Notes under the pieces: model-generated
Seen by the model: only the letters and a program-made list of their open reading frames with translations
Told to the model about the DNA's origin: nothing
The model's database searches: none
In this document: piece after piece, positions 11,479 to 61,660 of the stretch
Layout of the letters: every line of letters starts with the position of its first letter
Position numbering within the stretch: position 1 is the stretch's first letter
Translations under genes and position numbers: made by a program
NCBI GenBank assembly: GCA_963765145.1
Contig: CAVXVG010000029.1
Coordinates: 32,001-96,000 of the forward strand
Direction: 5' to 3'
Source: Parachlamydiales bacterium
Lineage (GTDB): Bacteria > Chlamydiota > Chlamydiia > Chlamydiales > JAJFMK01
Length of the DNA stretch: 64,000 nucleotides

Positions 11479-13470
11479 ATGACAAAGAAGACGAATAATC
11501 GAAAAGGAAGACTGCAGAAAAAACCAATCCCCTTCTCTAAAAAAACAGAAACAAATGATGAAATTGTAAACGGAATCATCAGACTCCACCCTCGAGGATT
11601 TGGGTTTTTACTCCCCGAAGGGCGATGGGGCTCAAAAGAAGAAGTTTTCATCCCTCGCCACCTGACCATGCAAGCTTTTGACGGTGATAGAGTCGCCGTA
11701 GAGGTCAAAGCTGAGGTCTCTGCCAAAGGAAAAGAGGGCAAAGTTGTCGAGATTTTAGAACGAGTACGCACCCATTTAGCCGGCACTGTTTTTCGGATCA
11801 ATTCAAAAGGGCGCCCCGTCGTTTATGTCCCTATTTTAGGCAGCGAAAATCATGTCGTCCTAGAAGAAGGCGAAGCCAATGTTGGCGACCGTATAGTGCT
11901 AGAAATTTTAACTCACGGCGAGCAAGGGATTAAAGCAACAGGCAAATTAGAGAAAATCATGGGACACATCGATCGCCCCGGCGACGACATCCTTTCTGCC
12001 GTTCACGAATACACTCTGCCCGGCTCTTTTTCCCCCGAGTTGGTCCAATCTCTCAAAAATCTTGGCAAAACAGTAAATAAGTCAGACATGAAGGGACGAG
12101 AAGACCTGACCAAATTTCTGACTGTCACAATCGATCCTGAGACTGCCAAAGACTTTGACGACGCCCTTTCCATTTCAAAAAGAAAAGATGGTTCTTTTTA
12201 TTTGGCCGTGCACGTTGCCGATGTGTCTCACTATGTCAAACCTGGCACTTTAGTTGATGATGAAGCCAGAAAAAGACTTAATTCAACCTATTTGCCTGGT
12301 GTTTGCATCCCGATGCTGCCGGAAATCCTTTCAAACGAACTTTGCAGCTTAAAACCAGAGGTCGAAAGACTTGCTGCGACTGTTCATATGGAATTTAAGC
12401 CAAACGGAGAGCTGATCCGGTTTCGGATGGCCCGTTCGGTCATCAAAAGTGCTTATCGCTTTACCTACAAAGAGGCAAGACAGGTCATTGATGGGACTAA
12501 AGAAAGCCCCTACCGAGAAGCTCTTTTGCAGATGAAAGAGTTGGCTTTAGCTTTGAAATCAATCCGAAAAGGTCGGGGCAGTATTGAACTTTCGCTTCCC
12601 GATTTGATTGTCAGGGTAAACAAAGAAGGTGTTCCGACCGGCATTGAATGGGAAGAATACGATATCACCCACCAATTGGTGGAAGAATTCATGTTAAAGG
12701 CCAACGAACTTGTGGCAACCCACCTCACAACAGCAGGCAAGCCGGTTACCTACCGTATCCATGAAAGCCCGGACATTGAGGATATTGAAGAATTTGCAAG
12801 GCTAGTTAGCTCGTTTGACATCAAAGTGCCGGAAAACCCTACCTCGCACCAATTGCAAGAGGTGCTTGACCAAGCAGCTAAAACCCCATTTGCCTCGTTT
12901 GTCATCGGCAGCTATATCCGATCGATGAAAATGGCCGTTTATTCGCATGAAAATATTGGCCACCACGGGCTTGCGCTAGAAAATTATTGCCACTTCACCA
13001 GCCCCATCCGCCGCTATCCCGATTTAGTCGTCCACCGTTTGCTATTTGGCGGAGAGGCCACCCTTGAAGAGGTCGCATCTATTTCAGACCAAGCCTCCAG
13101 TCAAGAGCGGGTCTCTGCAAAAGCCGAGCAAAGCGTTAAGTTGTTAAAAAAACTGCGCCTTCTTAAACAAGAGCCCAAAGAAAAAGAGTTTGTCGCCTAT
13201 GTTTCAAAAGTGAAGCAGTTTGGATTTACTTTTGAGGTTGCAGAATTTGGCCTTGAAGGGTTTTTTGGATTTGAAGATCTCGGTGATGACTATTATGTTT
13301 ACAACGAGAAAACCCGCTCATTGACTGGCAGACGCACCGGATTGAATTTTTTTGTCGGGGCTAAAATTGGGGTCTATTTGCAAGATGTCGATTTGATCTT
13401 TCAAGAGGCAAAATGGTATCTATCTGTAGAAGGTGGCCAAGAAAACAGAAGGGGAAAAAGGAAAAAATGA
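11479..13470 (+). CDS. rnr: Ribonuclease R (RNB family)
   Basis: [26 protein letters not shown]-terminal cold-shock domains and C-terminal S1 domain. Confidence 0.95.
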
Positions 13471-14144
13471 AAAGTCAGTTCCAATTTGATACGACACATT
13501 TAAGAAATTACTTCTTAACAGGGCTTGTTCTACTTCTACCCATTGCCCTGACCATCATCATCGTCACTTTCCTCTTTAACCTATTGACAGCCCCATTTGA
13601 AGGGCTGATGCATAGCTTTCTGACTAGCATTGGCATTTACCATGGTGGTTTTTGGATTCTTTCTGAAGAGCAGTTGGTCAACATGACCAGCAAGATTTTG
13701 ATCCTTGTGCTGATCATCGGTCTTACAATTTTGCTTGGAGCTATTGCCCGTTGGTTTTTCATCAATTGGCTTATCGGAGTTGGAGAAGCTGTTGTCACAA
13801 GAATCCCTCTGATTGGTTCAATCTATAAAACCTCTCAAGACGTGATCAAGACCATCTTTACTTCTAAGACAAGCAGCTTCAAGCAGGTGGTCCTTGCCCC
13901 TTATCCATCTAAAGGGACCTATGCGCTTGGCTTGATTACAAAAGAGGGGGTCACTTCGCATGACCAAGAGGTTTTAGGAGACCGCGTCACTGTTTTTGTT
14001 CCAACCACACCAAACCCTACTTCGGGCTTTCTGTTGCTCTATGAAGTTAAAGACTTGATCTATCTTGATATGGCTATTGAAGATGCCTTGAAGTTTGTCA
14101 TCTCTTGCGGTGTGATCACCTCACCTATTAATAGGAAACAGTAG
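13467..14144 (+). CDS. DUF502 membrane protein, copy 1
   Basis: FLTGLVLLLP, IPLIGSIY, VFVPTTPNPTSGFL; ATGA overlap with the rnr stop. Confidence 0.88.
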   Translation: MKSQFQFDTTHLRNYFLTGLVLLLPIALTIIIVTFLFNLLTAPFEGLMHSFLTSIGIYHGGFWILSEEQLVNMTSKILILVLIIGLTILLGAIARWFFINWLIGVGEAVVTRIPLIGSIYKTSQDVIKTIFTSKTSSFKQVVLAPYPSKGTYALGLITKEGVTSHDQEVLGDRVTVFVPTTPNPTSGFLLLYEVKDLIYLDMAIEDALKFVISCGVITSPINRKQ

Positions 14145-14151
14145 ATCTCTC

Positions 14152-14727
14152 ATGTGGAAATGGTTCATTGAAGGAATCATCCTTCTCTTTCCGATCGTCC
14201 TTTCCTGTTTGATTTTCATCTACTTATTCCAGCTTTTCTCCCATCCGCTCGATGTTTGGCTAGAATCGTTTTTCCCTGCCTTGGCCGGCAAACACTATAC
14301 TGCAAGGCTGATCGCTCTTCTAATGACTCTTGCCTTTATCGTGATCGTTGGCTTTTTAGGAGCACGCTGGATTTTAGGAAGAGTGTTAAAGCAGATACAC
14401 GCACTGTTTTTAAAAATACCAATCATTCGAAAAGTTTTTCATGCTTCTCATGAAGTGGTCAACACGATGTTGAGAGAGGAAGATCGGGGGTTTCAACAGG
14501 TAACACTCTTTCCGTTCGGAGATACTGGCGGTTATGCGGTCTCCTTTTTACCCCGTAAAGACGGGCAATTTGAAGAACACACCGCCGTCTTACTGCCGGG
14601 CACACCAAATCCCCTGCAAGGCTTTATGCTCTATGTAGAGAATGACAAAATCGCCCTTTCCGAGCTACCCATTGGCGCTGCCATGAAGTGGAACATCTCC
14701 ATCGGCTCGTCAGACTTCTCCAAATAA
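14152..14727 (+). CDS. DUF502 membrane protein, copy 2
   Basis: IPIIRKVF, LPGTPNPLQGFM. Confidence 0.8.
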   Translation: MWKWFIEGIILLFPIVLSCLIFIYLFQLFSHPLDVWLESFFPALAGKHYTARLIALLMTLAFIVIVGFLGARWILGRVLKQIHALFLKIPIIRKVFHASHEVVNTMLREEDRGFQQVTLFPFGDTGGYAVSFLPRKDGQFEEHTAVLLPGTPNPLQGFMLYVENDKIALSELPIGAAMKWNISIGSSDFSK

Positions 14728-14739
14728 TTCCTTTTCGTC

Positions 14740-14979
14740 CGCGAAGCGTTTGGAGTGCTAAACGGCGTTGTTGCACAATCAAATAGAATTCGCATACACA
14801 TTGTAGCTTAGGCTTTAGCCTGAGCTCGTTTTGCAGGACTTTAGTCCTGCTAGAAGCTTGCGGGTTAAAACCCGCAAAAACGAACTCAGGCTAAAGCCTA
14901 AGCTACATTTCTCATGATGGCGATTAATTATGCAACAACGCCGTGCTAAACAGGAGTTTAGCACTCCAAACGCTTCGCG
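14740..14979. repeat. Composite: palindrome A > MITE B (14764-14942, 9-bp TSD GTGCTAAAC) > REP doublet C (14802-14907)
   Basis: GTGCTAAAC at 14755-14763 and 14943-14951 flanks TIRs GGCGTTGTTGCACAAT/ATTATGCAACAACGCC. Confidence 0.9.
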
Positions 14980-15008
14980 TAGTATAGATTTTTTAGTGGT
15001 AAAGAGAC

Positions 15009-15599
15009 ATGATGCGGGCAGGGGCAGGGGTTTTGAAGATGAAATACTTTCTTGATGGAATAGCGATTCTTATTCCATTTATCCTGTCAGTTCTCATTGT
15101 GGTGTGGCTGGTTGACTTCTTCACCTATCCTCTCCACCTATGGCTCTCTCATGTGGTTCATCATAGAATCATCATCAAGACGCTGGCTTTTGTATTTACC
15201 GTCATCTTTATCACGACTCTTGGCTTTTTAATCCAAAGGTGGGCGCTTCATCGCTACTTAGACCGATTACATTCTCTGTTCTTAAAAGTACCCATCTTTA
15301 AGACCATTTATAAAAGCTGTTATCAGGCCATTCACGTTCTTTTTAAGAAGAAAGGGCGCGCTTTTAGTGCCGTTGTCACCTTTGAGTATGGCAATACCAA
15401 CGGCCAGGTGGTTGGCCTGATTCCTAGAGAAGAGAACCTCTTTGAAAACCATGTCCCGATCATGCACACGGGGCCAAGCCCCCTTCATAACCTCATCCTT
15501 TTCGTCGACAAGGATAAGCTCCATGCTACTGATATCCCTATAGAAAACGCGATCCGCTGGTCTGTTTCAGCAGGTTCGGCCCCCTTAAACAATTCTTAA
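15009..15599 (+). CDS. DUF502 membrane protein, copy 3 (divergent)
   Basis: FLDGIAILIP, LKVPIFKTIY, degenerate HTGPSP motif. Confidence 0.75.
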   Translation: MMRAGAGVLKMKYFLDGIAILIPFILSVLIVVWLVDFFTYPLHLWLSHVVHHRIIIKTLAFVFTVIFITTLGFLIQRWALHRYLDRLHSLFLKVPIFKTIYKSCYQAIHVLFKKKGRAFSAVVTFEYGNTNGQVVGLIPREENLFENHVPIMHTGPSPLHNLILFVDKDKLHATDIPIENAIRWSVSAGSAPLNNS

Positions 15600-15633: not shown

Positions 15634-16770
15634 ATGAGTGAAAAGTTCTCTGTCTATAATAACACCGGCGGCGGCGCTCCCCCGGCTGCCCCAATGAAGA
15701 CAGAAACTCCGCTTCTCTTTAAAAGAGACGGTTTTATCCCACCGTCGCAGTCTCTTTTTGATGCCATCAAGATGGAAACCAACCAGAGTAAACACAACGA
15801 CATCTTAACAAAATATTACAAGATGCTGCTCTCCTCGATTTTCTTGAAATGGAAAACAGAAGAAGGAAGCACTCCCCGGCCCATCAAACGAAAAGAGAAA
15901 GTTGAAAAGCCGGCGGTAGAGAGAAAGAAGCTCGATCTGCAGATTGGCAAAAAGATAGACGCCGCTTCGGACAAAGTCTTGATCACAATTGGCAAAGCTC
16001 TTCTGCCCGTTGCTAAACCCCCGTACAAACTCGCCCTAAGTGGGCTAGATCTTCTTGGCAAAGGGCTGAACAAAGCAGATGCGCTTATCGACAAGGCTAT
16101 CCTTAAAGTGCTTGTTGAGCCGGCCATTCTCCTCTATGAAAAGGTGATGCCTCCCCTTCAGAAAGTCGTTTCGATGATCAATCAAGCATTGACCATGACA
16201 TTAGAAATGTTAGAACGAGAAGGAGAGCGGATCATCGAATTTATCATTGTTCCTCTTGCTGAAGCATTGGAAACCGTTCAAATCCTAGCTAAAAAAATCT
16301 ATACTCCTCTTAGAAAAGCTAAAAATTGGATGGTCAAAAAATTGCCTTCCATACCAAAACCAAGCGCTATTTTAGAGCCATTAGACAGGGTCATTATCAA
16401 ACCCCTTAAAACCTTTATCAACACTTTCATCGCTACTCCAATGGCCAAAGTGTTGCAAAAAATGGGGACTAGCGTCCAAAAGGGGTCTCAGTTTTTATCT
16501 AAAAAAGGGTCCATAGCCTATTTGATGGCATCTAATTTCTGCCGTTCGGTAGGGGCAAGGCTTGGCCGTCTCCTCGAATTCCTATTCGGAATAGTGCTTA
16601 GAAGGCTCGGTCGATTCCTTCTATGGCTATTTAAGCAAATAAAAAGGCTATCCATTCAAGCATGGAAGTTCATCCGTACCATTCCACATTACCTCTCTAA
16701 AGCCGTTACAAAATGTTACGAGGTCGTCTGCAAGCTGACCCAATGGGCCGTTAGAAGATTCCAGCGATAA
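15634..16770 (+). CDS. Hypothetical basic, helical protein
   Basis: 378-aa ORF; no motif recognised. Confidence 0.65.
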   Translation: MSEKFSVYNNTGGGAPPAAPMKTETPLLFKRDGFIPPSQSLFDAIKMETNQSKHNDILTKYYKMLLSSIFLKWKTEEGSTPRPIKRKEKVEKPAVERKKLDLQIGKKIDAASDKVLITIGKALLPVAKPPYKLALSGLDLLGKGLNKADALIDKAILKVLVEPAILLYEKVMPPLQKVVSMINQALTMTLEMLEREGERIIEFIIVPLAEALETVQILAKKIYTPLRKAKNWMVKKLPSIPKPSAILEPLDRVIIKPLKTFINTFIATPMAKVLQKMGTSVQKGSQFLSKKGSIAYLMASNFCRSVGARLGRLLEFLFGIVLRRLGRFLLWLFKQIKRLSIQAWKFIRTIPHYLSKAVTKCYEVVCKLTQWAVRRFQR

Positions 16771-17020
16771 ATGATCAAATTGAAGTCACTACACTTTTAC
16801 AACGCGAAGCGTTTGGAGTGCTAAACTCCTGTTTAGCTTTGACTTATCAGTGAAAGTGAAAGCTAAACAGGAGTTTAGCACATACTGTAATTGCGCTTCA
16901 GAGCTTAGCCGGTAAGAAAATGGGCTGTTCTAGGAGGGTTTTAAAAACCCCACGGAGTAGTACTAGACTCTCCAGGCTTTGGCTTGGTAGCCTAAGCAAG
17001 CAATACAGGAGAACAGCCCA

Positions 17021-18122
17021 ATGAAACATTATATCGGTTTAGACGTATCTTTGAAAACTACTGCCATCTGCATCATGGCTCAAGATGGTAAGATCATCCG
17101 AGAGATGACAGCCGCTACTGACCCTTTAGCTATCGCAACTGCGATCAAGACGACCAAGCTCACTATTGAAGCTATAGCAATTGAAGCTGGTGGAACAAGC
17201 CGATGGCTTGTTCAAGAACTTCAAGAGCTTGACCTTCCAGCGATATGTATCGACTCTCGCAAAATGGCTGCCGCCATCGCAATCAAAGCCAATAAAACAG
17301 ACAAAAACGATGCGAGGGAAATCGCAAACGCCCTTCGGACTGGCTACTTTCAAGAGGTCTATCAAAAAAACGATACAAATATGAGCATCAAAAGTCTCTT
17401 AAACATCCGACGCAATCTGGTGATACAAAGAACCATGACGAGTAACTGTATCCGCGGTACTTTGAGATGTTGTGGAAAGCTTTTTTTAGGGTCTAGTAGT
17501 AGTCAAAAGAACTTCATAGAGAAGGTAACAGAGTCGATACAAGATCAACCTGAAGAGGTCGCAATGGGCATTCGTGCACTTTTAGTAACCTTTTCTCAAC
17601 TTCACAAACTAGTAGATGAAATAGACAAGAAGATCGAAGACATAGGAAAGAGATGACGAAGTCGTTCAGCTGCTAATGACAGTTCCTGGTGTAGGGATCG
17701 TAACTGCAGTGAGCTATAAGGTTGAAATTGGAGACCCAAAAAGATTCACACGATCGAGGTCAGTTGGAGCATATGTTGGGATGACTCCAAGGCAGTATAG
17801 TTCAGGTGAAACCGAGCATCAGGGGAAAATAACAAAGATTGGATCAAATGAACTCAGAGCGCTGCTATCTGATGCCGCCATGAGCATGATGTATCGATGC
17901 AAAACATGGAGTAGAGCCAAAGTTTTTGGGCTAAAGATCAATAAGAAGCATGGGCATAAAAAAGCTATAGTTGCCCTTGGTCGGAAGCTTGGTGTGATAA
18001 TGCATCGAATGTGGACAGAAGGTAAACCATTTGAAGCTGGTGAAGTCGAGAAAAAAGAAATTGATAAAGTAACCAAGCCAAGTCGGAAAGAGAAGAAAAA
18101 ATCAAAGCAGATGGCTGCTTAA
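17021..18122 (+). CDS. IS110-family recombinase (DEDD RuvC-like plus Tnp domain); frameshift near 17650
   Basis: YIGLDVS, IAIEA, KTDKNDA in ORF 17021-17656; TVPGVG, GMTPRQYSSG, AIVALGRKL in ORF 17676-18122. Confidence 0.93.
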
Positions 18123-18192
18123 GAAAAGTTAAAAAAGTTCTCAAAGAGCGAAAGAGCAGAGAGAGTAAGAAAAAAGATTCAAATACGAGTTC

Positions 18193-18348
18193 GAAATAAG
18201 GTTAAGACGCTTTGGAGTTGACGCTAATAAGACGTCGTGTAGCACATTGTCTTACCTTGTTTCTTTTGGAAAGTATGTTGGGGCTGAAGATCAGCTAATA
18301 AGGCCGAAATCTTCAATAAAAAGGACCCCGGAGAGAACTATGACCGAG
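18193..18348 (+). ncRNA. Putative bridge/seek RNA (target-binding loop plus donor-binding loop); ends approximate
   Basis: Target guides TTTGGAGT (18211-18218) and TAGCAC (18240-18245). Donor guides AGTATGT (18272-18278) and AGAGAAC (18332-18338). Each pair lies in an internal loop closed by stems. Confidence 0.85.
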
Positions 18349-18548
18349 TTAGAATTTTATTTTTTACGATCAAGCTTTGGAAGCCCATAGAGGAAGTTGT
18401 CAATTATCTTGGGGGAAGTATCCCCCAAACCCCCTCGGCTTAGGAAGGGGAAAGAGAAAAAATCATGCTTGCCTAGAAACGCAATTAGAGAACTCCAAAC
18501 GCTTCGCGAAGGCAGAATTCTCTGCACGCTGGTTAAATTATGTTTTAG

Positions 18549-30494: not shown

Positions 30495-32630
30495 ATGAGC
30501 GCTTTAAAATTTGTTGGTGTTCCTTGCTTTCACTTGCCCAAGGCAGTGGCAAGCAAAATCTTCGATCAGAAACTTGAGAAAGGGGAAAAAGTTGAACTTT
30601 TCCTCAAAGTTTCTGGGGGATTAGAAGCTTTCGTAGATGGTAAGCATGTTCTACTAAAAGGCGTTCCCCCAGACATTGGATCTGATGAAACCAAAAGCGC
30701 TCAAATCTGGCTGTCCGGAAGAGAATTGAAGTGGAATGGGGCCGAGCTCCAAATCTGCCCAAAAGTGGGAAAGTCTCTCTCTTCTTTTTCCCCACGTCCC
30801 CTTATGGGAAGAGAACTGTTTCTCCAAACATTAAGAAAAAGACTCGAAAGGGACTCGAGAGTCATCCTCACCGGAATGCGAGGAGTAGGCAAGTCTGCCC
30901 TTGCGGGTGCCTACCAAAACAAATTTGCCTCTTCATATACTCATCGGTGGGAGATTCAAGCATCTCAATTCAACATGTCGTTCTTAGCGCTTGCCCATTC
31001 CGTCGGCTTAGAAGGCGCCGAAGCAATGAAAACTTGGCTGCAAGAAACTAAAGGATGGTTGATTGTCGTGGAAGATGTCTTAGACATTACTTTTCTTGAT
31101 CACTACTTCCCTTCGACTCTTGGCGGACACCTTCTAGTGGTCTCTCCTCGACGCTCGTGGAAAGGAGAACTTGAACTTCCCCCTCTTGAGATGGAGGAGG
31201 CAATCGAATGTTTTCATGTCTCCACCGGGTTCGAAAACCAAGATGGGGTTAGGAAACTTGTAATGAAATTGGGATTTCTCCCCTCAGCTATAGAGCAGAC
31301 GGGCGACCACCTTAAAGGTAGCAGCACCTCCTATCTTCAGTTTCTTGCTTCCCTTGAACTATCAAGCAAGCCCCTCCAAAAATTTGAAATCTGGACAAGG
31401 TGGAAAGAGGCTGTGAATGCTTTGCAGAAAGAATCTCCAGCAGCCTATGAGCTTCTCGAGCAACTTGCCTGCCTCAATGGCAACGGCATCCCTAAGTATC
31501 TCTTCACCCAGAATGACCATCTCGACGACCTCTTATATCAACTCAATTGTCGCTACATGTTACAGACATGCGAAGGGATCATCGCCGTTGATCCTTTGGC
31601 ACAGCAAATTGTCAATGAACATGCAAAGGGCAATGCATTGGTAAGATTGCATCATAGCAAATTTGCCCTTCCACTCTGTTACTATCTTGGTGCTATCGCC
31701 CTTCGGGAAAACCGCCTTTCTGATGCAATGGATGCATTCACATTTGTCATAGAAGCTCAAAAAACGAAAACCGAACAACCACCACATCTTCTAGCCCTAA
31801 GCAAAATGGGATGTGCCAAAGTCTGGGCAGAAAACAATGAGCAGCTTAAAGCCGACCAGATGCTCGAAGAAGCATTGACCCTTGTAAAGCACTTGTCGCC
31901 ACTCGAAGAGGCCTATGGCTGGGTAAGCAGCGAAATCTACACAGATGCAGCCTTTTTCTTCTTATCGCAAAAAAAGTATGAAGAAGCGAAGCAGGCGTGT
32001 CTTCAGGCCCTATCTTGTTTCCATCATGCGATAGAAAAAGAAGGGCCACACCTTGCACGCACCTTCCACTTTCTTGGCCTTGCTTCGCTTGAACTAAAAG
32101 AACATAACCAAGCCCTCTTCTATCTAGAAAATGCTTGTAAGCTTTACCCTCCTACCGATCTTTTCACAAAGGCCCTCTACCAGTTGGCCCATCTTTACTT
32201 CCAATTCCAAGAAACACAAAAAGCTTCTGACACTCTTGTTCGCCTTCTGGATCTCTATGACACAGAGAAGAAAAAAGAAGACTCTTTTAAGGCACATGTG
32301 CTCTTTAGCCTTGCTAAAATTTCAACGATAAATGGAAATTTCCAAATGAGCACTGAATATCTTTTTGATGCTCACTGCATCCATAAAAGACTTATTCCAG
32401 AAAATAAAGTAGAGCAAATAAGAATCCTTCTTGCTTTGGAAGAAAATCACAAGGCAATGGGATCCGAAGTTGATGCCAAAAATGCTGCAACGGAATCTCT
32501 CCGTTTAGTCAATGCCCTAACCGAATCGGAAAAACATGAAGCACAAGACATTCTCAGCAAGATGACTCCGAAACCACAAGGCTTCAGCATCACCTTTAGT
32601 TCTTTTCTAAGAAATACCTTATTCAACTAA
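30495..32630 (+). CDS. NB-ARC/STAND NTPase with C-terminal TPR repeats
   Basis: MGRE, Walker A GMRGVGKS, Walker B WLIVVED, GFLPSAI (GLPL-like motif), TPR-like helices. Confidence 0.82.
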   Translation: MSALKFVGVPCFHLPKAVASKIFDQKLEKGEKVELFLKVSGGLEAFVDGKHVLLKGVPPDIGSDETKSAQIWLSGRELKWNGAELQICPKVGKSLSSFSPRPLMGRELFLQTLRKRLERDSRVILTGMRGVGKSALAGAYQNKFASSYTHRWEIQASQFNMSFLALAHSVGLEGAEAMKTWLQETKGWLIVVEDVLDITFLDHYFPSTLGGHLLVVSPRRSWKGELELPPLEMEEAIECFHVSTGFENQDGVRKLVMKLGFLPSAIEQTGDHLKGSSTSYLQFLASLELSSKPLQKFEIWTRWKEAVNALQKESPAAYELLEQLACLNGNGIPKYLFTQNDHLDDLLYQLNCRYMLQTCEGIIAVDPLAQQIVNEHAKGNALVRLHHSKFALPLCYYLGAIALRENRLSDAMDAFTFVIEAQKTKTEQPPHLLALSKMGCAKVWAENNEQLKADQMLEEALTLVKHLSPLEEAYGWVSSEIYTDAAFFFLSQKKYEEAKQACLQALSCFHHAIEKEGPHLARTFHFLGLASLELKEHNQALFYLENACKLYPPTDLFTKALYQLAHLYFQFQETQKASDTLVRLLDLYDTEKKKEDSFKAHVLFSLAKISTINGNFQMSTEYLFDAHCIHKRLIPENKVEQIRILLALEENHKAMGSEVDAKNAATESLRLVNALTESEKHEAQDILSKMTPKPQGFSITFSSFLRNTLFN

Positions 32631-37606: not shown

Positions 37607-38720
37607 GGCCTTGTTGCACAATTAAGTAAAAAAATTTTAGACCCTCTTACAAGGTCTTTTTCTATCCTAATTTATCTTTTTACCCAAACGCCCTTCGGCA
37701 TTCCTAAACTATTCATTTTATTGATTACTAGGCACTTGCAAAACGCTTCAGTGCGTTGAGTCTCTAATGTGCGTGATTTTAGTTCATCACCCAACATCGT
37801 TTTTACTCGAAACATGGAAGTCTCTACTAATGACCTTTTGTAATACTCAACTTCCTCTTTCCAGGGTCGCCTACCAGTATCTCTATCCCCCAGAGCATGT
37901 ATTCTCGCTATGTCTGTATCTCGATCCTTTACCCATCCTTCTTTGGCTCCCTTAATCCTTGCGTGTCTTGGTGGAGGAATAATGGCTCTGGCCCCTTTTT
38001 GATGTATTTTCTCCCTCACTACATTTGGGTCATAAGCACCATCTCCACGCACGTATCTATTTTCCCTCGGATCTTGTCGAGCATCCTTACTGCTGGCTCT
38101 GCCTCTCCAGTACTATGATCTGTTAATTCGCAAACAACTATATCTTGTGTTTCAGCGTCAATCGCAATATGAAATTTTCTCCAAATACGTCGTTTACTTT
38201 TGCCGTGAGTCCTAACTTTCCATTCTCCCTCTCCATGCACCTTAAGGCCGGTAGAATCTAAAATAATGTGCCTGGCAGGCCCATTACTTAGGCGTTTAAT
38301 GCTCTTATGGAGAGTCTTTGCTCTTCGGCAGATTTGTGAATAACAAGGAATTGTTAGAAATAACCTCATTAGCAAGAATATGGATGCGGCAAAACCTTGC
38401 AGACTTCTCAATGTTAGGTTGAATCGCTCCCTTAAAACCAACAACATCAGGATGGCGTCATCTGAGTATGTCTCCGGTCTTCCAGCAGATTTTGTATGTT
38501 TATGAGACAGCCACTTTCCTAGAGCGTTTTCCTCGATCCAAATAGTTATGCTTCCCCTTTGGATCAGAGCTTTGTTATAATCGGCCCAGTTGCGAATTTG
38601 ATAGTTTGCGCTAGCTTGCATGAAGTAGTTTCCCTTTTTTTAGTCGAAAACAGATTACTTCATGCATTTTTTTTTGACATGCCTTTTAGCAGCGTGTCAG
38701 GGGTATTGTGCAACAACGCC
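37607..38720 (-). mobile_element. IS5 family, IS903-group insertion sequence with 9-bp TSD
   Basis: TIRs GGCCTTGTTGCACAAT/ATTGTGCAACAACGCC; TSD GTTTAGCAC at 37598-37606 and 38721-38729. Confidence 0.92.
37672..38621 (-). CDS. IS5/IS903-type DDE transposase; frameshift near 38050
   Basis: NWADYNKALIQRGSITIW, DSTGLKVHGEGEW, WRKFH, GDGAYD, RSLVETSMFRVK. Confidence 0.93.
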
Positions 38721-57446: not shown

Positions 57447-58520
57447 ATGGCCTATATTCAAGAACGCAAAAAACAAGATGGCAAAACACAGTTCCGAGTT
57501 CAAATCAGACTCAAGGGCTACCCTGTTGAAACCGCCACCTTTGATCGAAAAACAGATGCCAAGCAGTGGGCGCAACAAACCGAATCCTCTATGCGAGAAG
57601 GGCGCTACTTTAAAACCTCTGAAGCAAAAAAACACACAGTAGCAAAGCTTGTTGACCGATACATCGAAAATGTCATCCCCACCAAACCAAAAAATGCAAA
57701 AACAACAACAGCTCAACTCCTCTGGTGGAAGGAACAAATTGGTCACTGCCTCCTCTCTGACCTCTCCCCTGCTCTAATTGCTGAACAAAGGGACTTTCTT
57801 CTCAAAGGCACCACCCCTAAAGGCAATACCCGTTCACCCTCTACGGTTGTCCGTTATCTCGCTGCTCTATCTCATGCCCTAACAACTGCTGTGAAGGAGT
57901 GGGGATGGCTAGATGACTCCCCTATGCGAAAAGTGACAAAGCCAAGAGAGCCGCGCGGACGAATCCGTTTCTTAAGCAACTGTGAACGAGAAGCCCTTCT
58001 CCAAGCATGCCAAGAAAGTACCAATGCTTACCTCTATCCAGTTGTCGTCCTTGCTCTCTCAACAGGAATGAGACAAGGAGAAATCATGAATCTCCGCTAT
58101 GAGGATATCGACATTTTCAAATCTCGACTTACCCTACATGAGACAAAAAATGGTGAAAGACGCTCAATCCCCCTTCGGGGACTTGCCCTTCAGCTCCTCC
58201 AAAAGCTAATCGCAAAAGAGAAACAACACATCGGCCTTCTCTTCCCATCAAAAGAGGATAAAAGCAAACCAATGGACCTACGCTTCCCCTGGGAGCAAGC
58301 ACTAAAAAAGGCATCTATCACCAATTTCCGCTTCCATGACTGCCGTCACTCTTGCGCAAGTTATCTCCTAATGAACGGCGCCAGCCTTGCCGAGATTGCA
58401 GAGGTCCTTGGCCACAAAACTCTCTCAATGGTAAAACGATATGCGCATCTCTCAGAAGCACATGCCTCGGGAGTAGTTGAACGTATGAATAAACAAATAT
58501 TTGGAGTTAATTGTGGGTGA
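57447..58520 (+). CDS. int: Tyrosine recombinase/integrase
   Basis: TGMRQGE, TKNG, FHDCRHS, LGHK...RYAH catalytic residues. Confidence 0.95.
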   Translation: MAYIQERKKQDGKTQFRVQIRLKGYPVETATFDRKTDAKQWAQQTESSMREGRYFKTSEAKKHTVAKLVDRYIENVIPTKPKNAKTTTAQLLWWKEQIGHCLLSDLSPALIAEQRDFLLKGTTPKGNTRSPSTVVRYLAALSHALTTAVKEWGWLDDSPMRKVTKPREPRGRIRFLSNCEREALLQACQESTNAYLYPVVVLALSTGMRQGEIMNLRYEDIDIFKSRLTLHETKNGERRSIPLRGLALQLLQKLIAKEKQHIGLLFPSKEDKSKPMDLRFPWEQALKKASITNFRFHDCRHSCASYLLMNGASLAEIAEVLGHKTLSMVKRYAHLSEAHASGVVERMNKQIFGVNCG

Positions 58521-59226
58521 ATTGGATGAGGTAATCATTGAATCTAATATAGGTTCATCTAAATATCCTGTGAATGATTGGGGAAAATGGGTCAAAGCCG
58601 ACGGGGGCACTCTTTCGGAAATTATTTTCCTAATTCATGGAATTTTCCCAGGCAACGCGTTAAATGTTCATTCCCCACATAGTTATAGTGATGCTTTTCG
58701 AGCTGAATTTCAGCAACAGATTGATGTTTATGAACTTGCAGAACGAAGTATCTTGTTAGGCAAATTATCAGCAGAAAAAAATGAGCGTGATTATTGGTTA
58801 ACCATCGATATTAAAAGAACAGAGAGTACTTACTGGGTAGGGATCGATGATGTTTTGGAATGGGCCATTACAAAAAAAGTTGGCACCCCCGAAGTGATCA
58901 AACAGTTGATGTCAGCCAGGAAACATTTTGCAAATGAACACTCTGCAAATAGCAGTAACACTAAGAAAAAAAGTCATCTTCAGCAAATCAAAGAAAGGGC
59001 TATTCCTCTAATCAAAAAAAGACGCGCGAATTATCGAGGAGAATCCAATTCTAGTTTGATAAAAGCACTGAAATTGAAGAGCCTTTTTAAAAAGCAGAAT
59101 GGCCAAGAATATGGTGATAAGTTTTGGCTGAATACAGTCAGAGGATGCGATGAAACACCTAAACCAGATCGCTTTAAGAGGAAGAGGGAGAGAAAATCAA
59201 GGATTTCTAAAACTTGGACTAAATAA
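58501..59226 (+). CDS. Hypothetical island protein
   Basis: 241-aa ORF directly after the integrase. Confidence 0.6.
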   Translation: MELIVGELDEVIIESNIGSSKYPVNDWGKWVKADGGTLSEIIFLIHGIFPGNALNVHSPHSYSDAFRAEFQQQIDVYELAERSILLGKLSAEKNERDYWLTIDIKRTESTYWVGIDDVLEWAITKKVGTPEVIKQLMSARKHFANEHSANSSNTKKKSHLQQIKERAIPLIKKRRANYRGESNSSLIKALKLKSLFKKQNGQEYGDKFWLNTVRGCDETPKPDRFKRKRERKSRISKTWTK

Positions 59227-59615
59227 CTATCCTTCTAGCTTAGACCGTACCACTTGTTTTGTATCTGGTAAGTATCCTTTTTGAAATGACTCTAGTGTTT
59301 CTAGCCTCTTTCCCTGTCATTTCTTCATAGTTCCCTAAAATGTACTGTAAGCTCGTTCTTTATTTTATCCCGTGAGAATTTCGGCGTTTTGAGTAACCGG
59401 GAGAAACCTTAACTATCCTTCTAGAAAACAAATTCAATATTTTATAGAGCACCAGCCCTTCATTTAAAACTCTTCTGTTATCTACAGAGCATCTTGCTAT
59501 GCTCCCAGGAAATATCAATATAATTTTTTATATGTCATTTCTTGCATTGAATTTCGGCATTAGTCTGACGATAGTCGCGGACAGCACCGAAAAATTTAAC
59601 AAAAGGAATAAAGAA

Positions 59616-59817
59616 ATGACGTATTTGACGCCAAAACAATTTGTTGAAAAACACAAAATTTTCCCAATGGGAGGTTTTAGGCATTTATTATTTAAAAACC
59701 CGCCGGGGACTCGATCGAGCAATCATAAGATTGGGAACGCGAAAAATCTTAATCTCGGAAGAGGAGTTTTTTTGCTGGTTAGAAGAGAAAAAACAGAAAG
59801 GAGGGGGTGTTCTATGA
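59616..59817 (+). CDS. Excisionase/AlpA-like small DNA-binding protein (1-nt frameshift near 59705)
   Basis: MTYLTPKQF..GGFRHLLF, then in another frame IIRLGTRKILISEEEFFCWLE; the stop overlaps the next ATG. Confidence 0.65.
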
Positions 59818-60167
59818 GGAAACTCTTTCCCATCAAGGAGCCACGACAAAAAAGAGCTCTTAAAGCTCTGCTTACGCATAACGCCGTATCTGTAAAAGAT
59901 ATGGGTATCATTGCAGGGGCACTAAACCCTCGCCAAATTATTTCCGAACTAAGAGGAAAATATGGGCTCAGGGACGCAATCAAAACTAGAAGGGTCAAAG
60001 TCATTGATCGAGATGGCAAGACTTGTCGACCAGGAGAATATTTTGTTTTACAGGAAGATAAAGCCCTTCTTGAAGACTTGCTTAAAGAGGCCACCCCATC
60101 GAGTAAGAGCGATGAGATGGCTAAAGTACCACTAAACACCAACATAATGGATGGAGGTCAGTTATGA
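59814..60167 (+). CDS. Winged-HTH-like protein
   Basis: RALKALL..GALNPRQIISELR..DRDGKTCRPGEY; GGAGG RBS. Confidence 0.6.
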   Translation: MRKLFPIKEPRQKRALKALLTHNAVSVKDMGIIAGALNPRQIISELRGKYGLRDAIKTRRVKVIDRDGKTCRPGEYFVLQEDKALLEDLLKEATPSSKSDEMAKVPLNTNIMDGGQL

Positions 60168-61660
60168 CAACCCCTTTATTTATCGAATGGAATCCTCCCG
60201 AATCGTTCGGAGGGGAAACCCTAAAACCATGGCCTAAAGGAGTTTTTCCAGAACCCTTTGAGGATTTTGTTTGCGAGCTTGCTCGATCAACAGAAACGCC
60301 GGTTGAGCTTGCTGCTCTGATGACTCTATCTGCGGTCGCTACGGCTGCTCAGAAGCGCTATACGGTCCAAATAAAACCCGACTATGAGGAGGTGCTTTGC
60401 TTGTGGACTTGTGCAGCAATGCCACCAGGGTCAAGAAAAAGCGCTGTGTTAAGCGAATGCCTCATACCTATAAAGGTGTTCGAACGAGCGCTAGTCAAAA
60501 ACACAGAACCTCTCCGTAAAGGAATTGAAAGCGATAACAAGCTTTTTAAGGCTCGGCTCTTGGATGTCTCAAGTCGAGCAAAAGCTGCCAAAGGACAAGA
60601 CTTCGATGTTCTAAAAAACGAAGCCTTAGAAATTGAAAAAGCGATAAAAAGCATCCCGCCCAGTCCTCAACTCTGGACTTCTGATGTAACGCCGGAAAAT
60701 TTGGCCACTATTATGGAAGAAAACGATGAATCTATAAGTATCCTAAGCGATGAAGGGGGTATTTTTGATATTCTTGCCGGTAGATACAGCAAAGGAATAC
60801 CAAATCTTGATCTAGCCTTACAAGCACACTCTGGAGGTAGTTGCAGAGTGAATCGCTTGTCACGGCCACCCCTTATATTGGAAAGGCCCCGTCTCACGAT
60901 GGGACTTACACCTCAGCCTTGCGTGCTCGAAGGAATGGGCCGCAACGATGCTTTCCGAGGACGAGGGCTAATGGGACGCTTCTTATATGCTCTACCGGCC
61001 TCTAACCTTGGCAAACGGAGTCTAGATGAACCCCCTATAGAAAAAACGATCGTCACCAAATATCAGGAAGCGATCGCAAATCTTCTCAAAATGTGTTCTG
61101 AGGTAAATTTCTCAACCTCTAAGACTCCATTACAACTAACGGCAGAGGCTTATGAAAAATGGCGATTAAACAGTCTTGTCATCGAGGTTAAAATGGGAAC
61201 CGGAGGCCAACTTGCCCATATAACAGATTGGGCTGGCAAGCTCCCCGGTGCCATTGCACGCATAGCCGCGCTATTACACCTAATGAGGTATCACAAAGAT
61301 GTCCCTGAAAATATCCTTGTGTCAGAGCAGGAAATGGAAGCAGCTATAAAAATTGGCAACTTTCTTCAGTCGCACGCCATTGAGGTCTTCAATTTGATGG
61401 GACGAGACAAACAAGAAACGGCCAGTAAAAAAGTACTTGAGTGGATTCTGAATAAGAAGCCCAAAAGTTTTTCTAGAAGAGAGTGCCAAAGGGCTTTAAA
61501 AGGGTATTTTCCCAAAGTAAGCGAGTTAAAACCAGCCCTTGAACTGCTAGTAGAACACCACTACATTCAAGAACTCCCTCAAGAAAATTATAACAACCGA
61601 CCAAGCCTTATTTACGAGGTGAATCCTTATCTTTATGAGGAGAAAAATAAAGGGACTTAG
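60164..61660 (+). CDS. DUF3987/YfjI family P-loop protein (replication-associated in mobile elements)
   Basis: PPGSRKSA, DVTPENL, SDEGG, RGRGLMGRFL, C-terminal wHTH. Confidence 0.85.
   Translation: MTTPLFIEWNPPESFGGETLKPWPKGVFPEPFEDFVCELARSTETPVELAALMTLSAVATAAQKRYTVQIKPDYEEVLCLWTCAAMPPGSRKSAVLSECLIPIKVFERALVKNTEPLRKGIESDNKLFKARLLDVSSRAKAAKGQDFDVLKNEALEIEKAIKSIPPSPQLWTSDVTPENLATIMEENDESISILSDEGGIFDILAGRYSKGIPNLDLALQAHSGGSCRVNRLSRPPLILERPRLTMGLTPQPCVLEGMGRNDAFRGRGLMGRFLYALPASNLGKRSLDEPPIEKTIVTKYQEAIANLLKMCSEVNFSTSKTPLQLTAEAYEKWRLNSLVIEVKMGTGGQLAHITDWAGKLPGAIARIAALLHLMRYHKDVPENILVSEQEMEAAIKIGNFLQSHAIEVFNLMGRDKQETASKKVLEWILNKKPKSFSRRECQRALKGYFPKVSELKPALELLVEHHYIQELPQENYNNRPSLIYEVNPYLYEEKNKGT

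Follow-up and report, generated by a model that had tools for sequence, protein, structure and literature searches.

An IS1111-group element in five copies

The insertion element at positions 16880–18493 of the window, that is, the whole 64,000-nucleotide stretch of a Parachlamydiales contig that was analyzed, raises the question of how it finds its insertion site. The initial annotation had read it as an IS1111-type element carrying a bridge RNA programmed against a palindromic repeat of the genome. In that genome (G000; 2.68 Mb, 84.8% complete), the element is one of five near-identical full copies, with one or two differences between the window copy and each of the others. All five are bounded by the core dinucleotide AC (GT on the other strand), located in the window on the plus strand at 16880–16881 on the left and at 18492–18493 on the right.

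The features of the IS110 family were present: a short core at both ends, a fixed target site, no variable target duplication, and a protein combining a RuvC-like DEDD domain (PF01548) with PF02371 and its catalytic serine. The traits of the IS1111 group were observed as well. Sub-terminal inverted repeats lie at 16888–16899 (plus strand, 6 nt inside the left core) and 18476–18487 (minus strand, 4 nt inside the right core), matching at 11 of 12 positions with 8 bp perfect, compared with 7–17 bp in the group. The non-coding DNA amounts to 371 nt after the stop codon vs. 141 nt before the start, and the top-strand complement (18211–18218) stands ahead of the bottom-strand match (18240–18245) in the RNA. 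That the element belongs to this group of the IS110 family and has spread recently in the genome is very probable, a judgement made jointly for the whole bridge-RNA explanation.

The DEDD recombinase gene (17021–18122, plus strand) is intact in the other four copies, where it encodes 366 amino acids. The recombinase matched NF033542 at 239.5 bits (cut-off 140) and the IS621 structure 8wt6 in phmmer with an E value of 3.9e-14. The catalytic residues D8, E55, D94, D97, and S261 line up with those of IS621, and little or no variation occurs at them among 64 proteins. In the window copy, one extra base near 17652 causes a frameshift that splits the product into 211 aa (PF01548) and 148 aa (PF02371). 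A programmed frameshift was ruled out, as the extra base is missing from four of the five copies and from the element in contigs of two other sequencing runs; it is either a lesion confined to this copy or an error in the assembly. The window copy is probably inactive or mis-assembled and could be moved in trans. The frameshift-corrected protein proposed earlier for a recombination assay is unneeded, since four natural copies are intact.

The flanks of the window copy are two converging genes, an unannotated ORF (15634–16770) and the gene for cysteinyl-tRNA synthetase. The ORF, which adjoins the left side of the element, encodes 378 aa with a long amphipathic helical pattern and gave no Pfam match. 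None of the five copies interrupts an ORF of at least 150 aa. Elsewhere in the genome, a solo 36-nt right end of the element is fused to a repeat arm (L005, contig C21, 174136–174171), adjacent to sequence that resembles the flank of another copy. To judge from this arrangement, the remnant is probably what a deletion left of a sixth insertion.

The occupied repeat

All five copies occupy the same core AC in an arm of a palindromic repeat of ~94 bp; when the insertion sites of the other copies were checked, none was unrelated. Four copies sit in full palindromes, with the inner loop in both orientations, and one (on contig C27) in a lone arm. At the window copy, the left part of the repeat spans 16803–16881 (left arm, inner hairpin 16818–16881, and right arm up to the core), and the rest of the right arm, which forms the right target, follows at 18494–18508. 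The arms are 28 nt long and 96% complementary, and the outer arm 16803–16822 pairs with 18489–18508. As initially described, removal of the element restores the target; the resulting palindrome exists intact elsewhere, at 100% identity over 96 nt.

The intact 12-mer target was found at 178 sites in G000, compared with 0.37 expected, and 176 of them lie inside the repeat. Long ORFs (at least 150 aa) hold 6 of the 178, compared with an ORF cover of 77%. The repeat shows the traits of REPIN/REP sequences: it is high-copy and extragenic, and its 270 arms form 82 inverted doublets. In a search of 41 genomes, a 15-nt arm pattern occurred 176 times in G000, once in one congener, and not at all in the other 39. 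Since the repeat is abundant only in G000 among these genomes, what the guide matches is a lineage-specific expansion of a repeat. The target was therefore correctly described as a multicopy intergenic palindrome, and the label "safe harbour" holds as far as intergenic position goes.

A RAYT gene beside the repeat was not found: the 84.8%-complete genome gave six Y1_Tnp matches, none with a repeat arm within 1 kb. In Rfam, the palindrome yielded weak miRNA-type matches only, all below the gathering score, and the RNA region of the element yielded none. A preference for TAGC-type arms was considered and set aside as uninformative: all five copies sit in such arms, yet these make up about two thirds of all 270.

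In the same palindrome arm, the window also contains an IS5/IS903-type DDE element (37607–38720; PF13737, split reading frame), whose 9-bp target duplication ends at the same core AC. Genome-wide, the end motif of this element was counted 102 times, in 62 cases preceded by exactly that 9-mer in either orientation. The 9-bp duplication was observed in 21 of 36 paired ends, many of which enclose only 179–280 bp (MITE-like). Two unrelated transposon families share a single landing point, and the lineage-specific repeat targeted by the guide is thus also used by the second of them.

Guide segments and predicted fold

The predicted bridge (long seek) RNA extends over 18174–18358, with ends inferred from its closing stem; this and all following segments are on the plus strand. 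Its target-binding arm (18193–18263) comprises an outer stem (18193–18209 with 18248–18263) and an inner hairpin (18219–18237). The first target guide, TTTGGAGT (18211–18218), is complementary to the core and the 6 nt to its right. The second (18239–18245) has the same sequence as the left target plus core, with an exact match at 18240–18245 (TAGCAC), and is followed by the putative handshake dinucleotide AT of the target loop (18246–18247), which matches donor positions +1 and +2.

On the donor side, the first guide, AGTATGT (18272–18278), would read the donor half in the left end (16882–16887), whose first two bases, AT, are the candidate partner of the target-loop handshake. Positions 18272–18276 of this guide covary with the donor; its core part (18277–18278) is in register and unconserved. 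The second donor guide, AGAGAAC (18332–18338), has the same sequence as the right end of the element plus core. In the donor-loop handshake dinucleotide after it (18339–18340), the first base matches target +1 here and the second does not. The donor and target loops each match both strands of their DNA, namely the end junction and the target. All guide motifs named in the initial annotation, and the stem 18193–18208/18249–18263, were recovered where they had been placed. The donor guides are indeed present in the second loop, but folding makes a multi-branch loop, in which they probably lie, likelier than a simple internal loop.

In dinucleotide shuffles of 18123–18470, both target motifs appeared together in 6 of 20000, and all four motifs (with 5 nt counted for the first donor guide) in none of 20000. 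Folding of the focal RNA by itself surpassed that of shuffles by no more than a modest margin (z −2.8 over 371 nt and −1.0 over 196 nt), and the structural case consequently rests on the relatives. The stem 18193–18208/18249–18263 occurred in the predicted folds and showed compensatory changes in 11 of 12 pairs across 40 aligned sequences. Scaffold pairs are kept at 94.1% in relatives, a level reached by none of 500 shuffles and compared with 33–52% in slid controls; compensatory changes affected 17 of 21 pairs. For the closing stem, the 5′ and 3′ flanks of 40 elements pair with their own partners at a mean of −13.7 kcal/mol, compared with −6.8 kcal/mol for swapped partners, and in the predicted fold this stem joins both arms in one structure of ~185 nt.

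Covariation of guides with DNA in relatives

A profile search with an alignment gave 406 matches, of which 80 were kept, and the related loci totaled 189; in a search of genome contigs with the N-terminal fragment alone, no relative was found. Both ends were fixed in 71 of the 189 loci by an inverted-repeat pattern in which core and guides were unused, while 118 were dropped because this strict pattern missed one or both ends. The same dinucleotide stood at both ends in 69 of the 71 loci (67 AC and 2 AT; some loci are duplicates). Besides the focal element, these loci formed 46 clusters, and the 39 that align well provide the main counts.

Across the 39 clusters, the first target guide matched its DNA at 0.69 compared with 0.29 when permuted (7 positions), and the second at 0.77 compared with 0.33 (6 positions), each with 0/1000 permutations, values that are inflated by kinship because the relatives are not independent. 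With the seven poorly aligned clusters added, the values were 0.61 and 0.77, still with 0/1000. The core bases of the first target guide are kept in 37 and 36 of the 39 clusters, and the nearest three positions of the second match in 38, 37, and 36. The covariation of guides with insertion sites among homologs, which had been suggested as a check, was therefore observed for both target guides.

For the first donor guide, the match was 0.80 compared with 0.59 permuted (6 positions, 39 clusters, 0/1000). This guide tracks donor +3 in 38 and +4 in 36 of 39 clusters; its core pairing was kept in 7 and 18. A shifted register for the core part, giving 39/39 and 14/39, was rejected, as the 39 reflects an invariant stem base. 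The second donor guide matched in 39/39 clusters at each of 7 positions and is nearly invariant; it also mirrors rare changes in the end (L125, L034) and in the core (L084, L171). The core had been claimed for the guides of both donor halves, which is true of the focal element, where all four guides contain it, but not of the first donor guide in most relatives, where it is found in the three others.

In a blind scan of 6673 column–position pairs, target-guide columns filled the first 11 places. Among 20 disjoint sister pairs, both targets followed 78 of 108 guide differences; the other 30 comprised 15 with a non-matching target change and 15 with none, and 13 target differences occurred without a guide change.

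Two distant relatives, L084 and L171, have AT at both ends and AT in their guides, a natural change of core. In L016 and L050, the right end is duplicated in tandem (~22 nt), which makes the right junction ambiguous.

Alternative explanations

It could be argued that the guide matches are due to chance or are relics of local duplication, in a conventional insertion sequence targeted by its protein. Single motifs of 5–7 nt are indeed common, the two donor motifs appearing in 26% and 8% of shuffles. However, covariation at fixed columns across 39 clusters, found blind, effectively refutes this explanation, the conserved RNA structure also speaks against it, and its probability is negligible. It is very unlikely, too, that the hairpin of the repeat is needed alongside or instead of the guide, with the protein reading its structure. 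All copies sit in hairpin arms, and for ISPpu10 a stem-loop at the target reportedly acts as a second determinant (bioRxiv 10.64898/2026.03.19.712850; published systems are cited here and below from the accessible parts of their sources). As 176 of the 178 exact sites fall within the repeat, G000 cannot separate sequence from structure. Nevertheless, one of the five copies (C27) occupies a lone arm without the long palindrome, and the relatives follow their guides into many unrelated flanks; as the sole mechanism, the hairpin cannot explain the covariation.

A different possibility concerns the length of the working guide. A short seek RNA (about 18190–18265) might suffice, the ends being read by the protein via the sub-terminal repeats and the donor matches being accessory. 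For ISEc11, an RNA of 82 nt was enough and worked with higher efficiency than the long form (PMC11187229); moreover, most relatives have a first donor guide that does not match the core, and the second, being nearly invariant, could be kept as scaffold. In contrast, the first donor guide tracks donor +3 and +4 (38/39 and 36/39), the second mirrors the rare end and core changes of L125, L034, L084, and L171, and the base after it tracks the target. These three patterns require selection on the donor loop, and the short form is considered improbable. The bridge-RNA explanation as a whole, with both loops at work, is held with high confidence.

Proposed mechanism and expression

According to the bridge-RNA explanation, the element would excise as a circle whose joined ends constitute the donor site and probably also form a promoter. 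The transcript would carry the recombinase mRNA and, behind it, the RNA of ~185 nt. One RNA loop would recognize the 12-bp target within an arm of the palindromic repeat and the other the circle junction, while recombinase and RNA would exchange strands at the core. The geometry would be that of IS621 with the recombination site turned relative to the gene, including the presumed handshake bases.

The circle junction was absent from the assembly and from contigs of four sequencing runs. Across the predicted junction, a weak −35-like hexamer (18469–18474, plus strand; 4/6, consensus match only) faces a −10-like hexamer (4/6) 18 nt on, so that a junction promoter would be weak here. A hexamer with 5/6 or 6/6 matches (consensus match only) was found 24–25 nt before the end of the core in 16 of 40 elements. 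A promoter scan of the linear element on the plus strand found none. One RNA run, available as contigs only, covers 16945–17148 and leaves the guide region uncovered; it is uninformative either way.

Core, handshake bases and strand orientation

The AC core reported initially does stand at both ends, but it is no novelty, being GT read on the other strand. GT is one base from the CT core of IS621, in which a GT core was reported to work and the second core T is nearly invariant (PMC11208158). In a direct comparison, 9 of 11 donor bases are identical to the IS621 donor on the minus strand, compared with 2 of 11 on the plus strand. With the minus-strand reading, the first guide becomes the left guide and the guide order becomes that of IS621. 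A library oligo for IS621 has the same linear layout around the target guides (PMC11208160).

In each loop of IS621, the second guide is succeeded by handshake bases (A81/U82 and G166/U167), which pair with the other DNA once strands have been exchanged (PMC11208158). In the present clade, both bases of the AT behind the second target guide agree with the donor, each in 38 of 39 clusters; this AT is nearly invariant and hence allows no covariation test, and one compensated change was observed (L064 and L154, which are identical in sequence). Of the two bases behind the second donor guide, the first matched the target in 25 of 39 clusters compared with 14.7 expected (0/5000), and the second in 17 of 39 compared with 8.6 expected (7/5000). 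These positions agree with A81/U82 and G166 of IS621.

Siddiquee et al. gave the IS1111 guide order as top-strand complement first and considered that the groups may differ in mechanism (PMC11187229). On the strength of the sequence comparison, we lean slightly toward the reading that the reversed guide order of IS1111 reflects nothing more than a recombination site that is inverted with respect to the gene. If this is true, the IS1111 and IS110 groups would be unified, and natural covariation would point to an IS1111 element with a working donor loop; design rules for a new clade of programmable recombinases could then be drawn from dozens of reprogramming events in nature. This equivalence was not found stated in the literature searched, which included the accessible parts of PMC13626964, PMC13604230, and bioRxiv 2024.01.24.577089, as texts outside their figures, and part of the supplements of PMC11208160.

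Relation to known systems and distribution

Like IS621 (PMC11208160, PMC11208158), the element has a DEDD and serine recombinase, four guides in two loops, and insertion into REP repeats; on the other strand, it also shares the guide order, the T at the second core position, the AU handshake, and 9 of 11 donor bases. Unlike IS621, its RNA lies behind the gene and not before it, it has long inverted repeats, and its site is inverted relative to gene and promoter. The core pairing of the first donor guide is unconserved, in contrast to the IS621 model, and a multi-branch loop is the probable location of the donor guides, a feature noted for IS1111 by Durrant et al. (PMC11208160). In the same source, 93% of the IS1111s catalogued had a predicted bridge RNA.

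ISEc11, ISPa11, and ISKpn4 (PMC11187229) resemble the element in sub-terminal repeats, downstream non-coding region, guide order, and the G--P----SG motif. The element differs from them in coming from a chlamydial clade and in its protein of 366 aa compared with 330–350. It also has clear covarying donor guides and handshake bases, of which no description was found for these three in the accessible part of that paper. REP repeats host 6 of 6 copies of ISPa11 (PMC1525189). Every copy of ISPpu9 and ISPpu10 in Pseudomonas putida (PMC12288879, bioRxiv 2026.03.19.712850) likewise lies in a multicopy intergenic palindrome, at a fixed dinucleotide; these two differ in belonging to the IS110 group, without long sub-terminal repeats. 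RNA-guided IS110/IS1111 elements in REP repeats are established by the published accounts of IS621, ISPa11, ISPpu9, and ISPpu10, and the present element illustrates a known RNA-guided mechanism with unusual clarity and does not add a new one. Bridge recombination in the less studied IS1111 group, and with it an IS621-like donor loop and handshake, could readily be tested on its four intact copies, its guide RNA with all segments assigned, and some 40 relatives whose guides differ and whose targets match them.

The closest named relatives of the element are Chlamydiia/Chlamydiales records, and relatives were found in 26 of 400 other genomes of the class of the host. For one gene of the window, the nearest Atlas cluster consists mostly of Chlamydiota. 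The designation "chlamydial" is supported by these matches, short of a formal placement. The nearest named element in the plasmid collection is of the ISMno22 family (40% identity over 93%). Four alphaproteobacterial relatives (L075, L077, L079, L083) have the same ends and AC core. ISMno22 and these alphaproteobacterial transposases, with identities of only about 40%, differ in their target, and their RNA aligns poorly. The literature search found no work on a chlamydial clade of IS1111-like elements, and the searchable part of the PMC11208160 supplements contained no chlamydial names.

Several further features were noted in G000. A second, distant IS110-family gene (L006, contig C25, ~31190–32290; 38% over 108 aa) is present as a single copy and is preceded by a stretch resembling the left arm of the repeat. 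Within the window, three tandem DUF502 genes occupy 13413–15599, and at 57447–61657 a phage-type integrase precedes an unannotated ORF and DUF3987, which likely marks the edge of an integrated element.

In genome G406, a 48%-identical relative (L070) has the same first target guide as the element and sits in a related multicopy inverted repeat, which gave 24 matches at up to two mismatches, some as inverted pairs ~115 bp apart. The target of another relative, L039 (also of L018, L092, L093, and L180), resembles the end motif of the IS5-type element of G000, and by this resemblance L039 may aim at the ends of another element.
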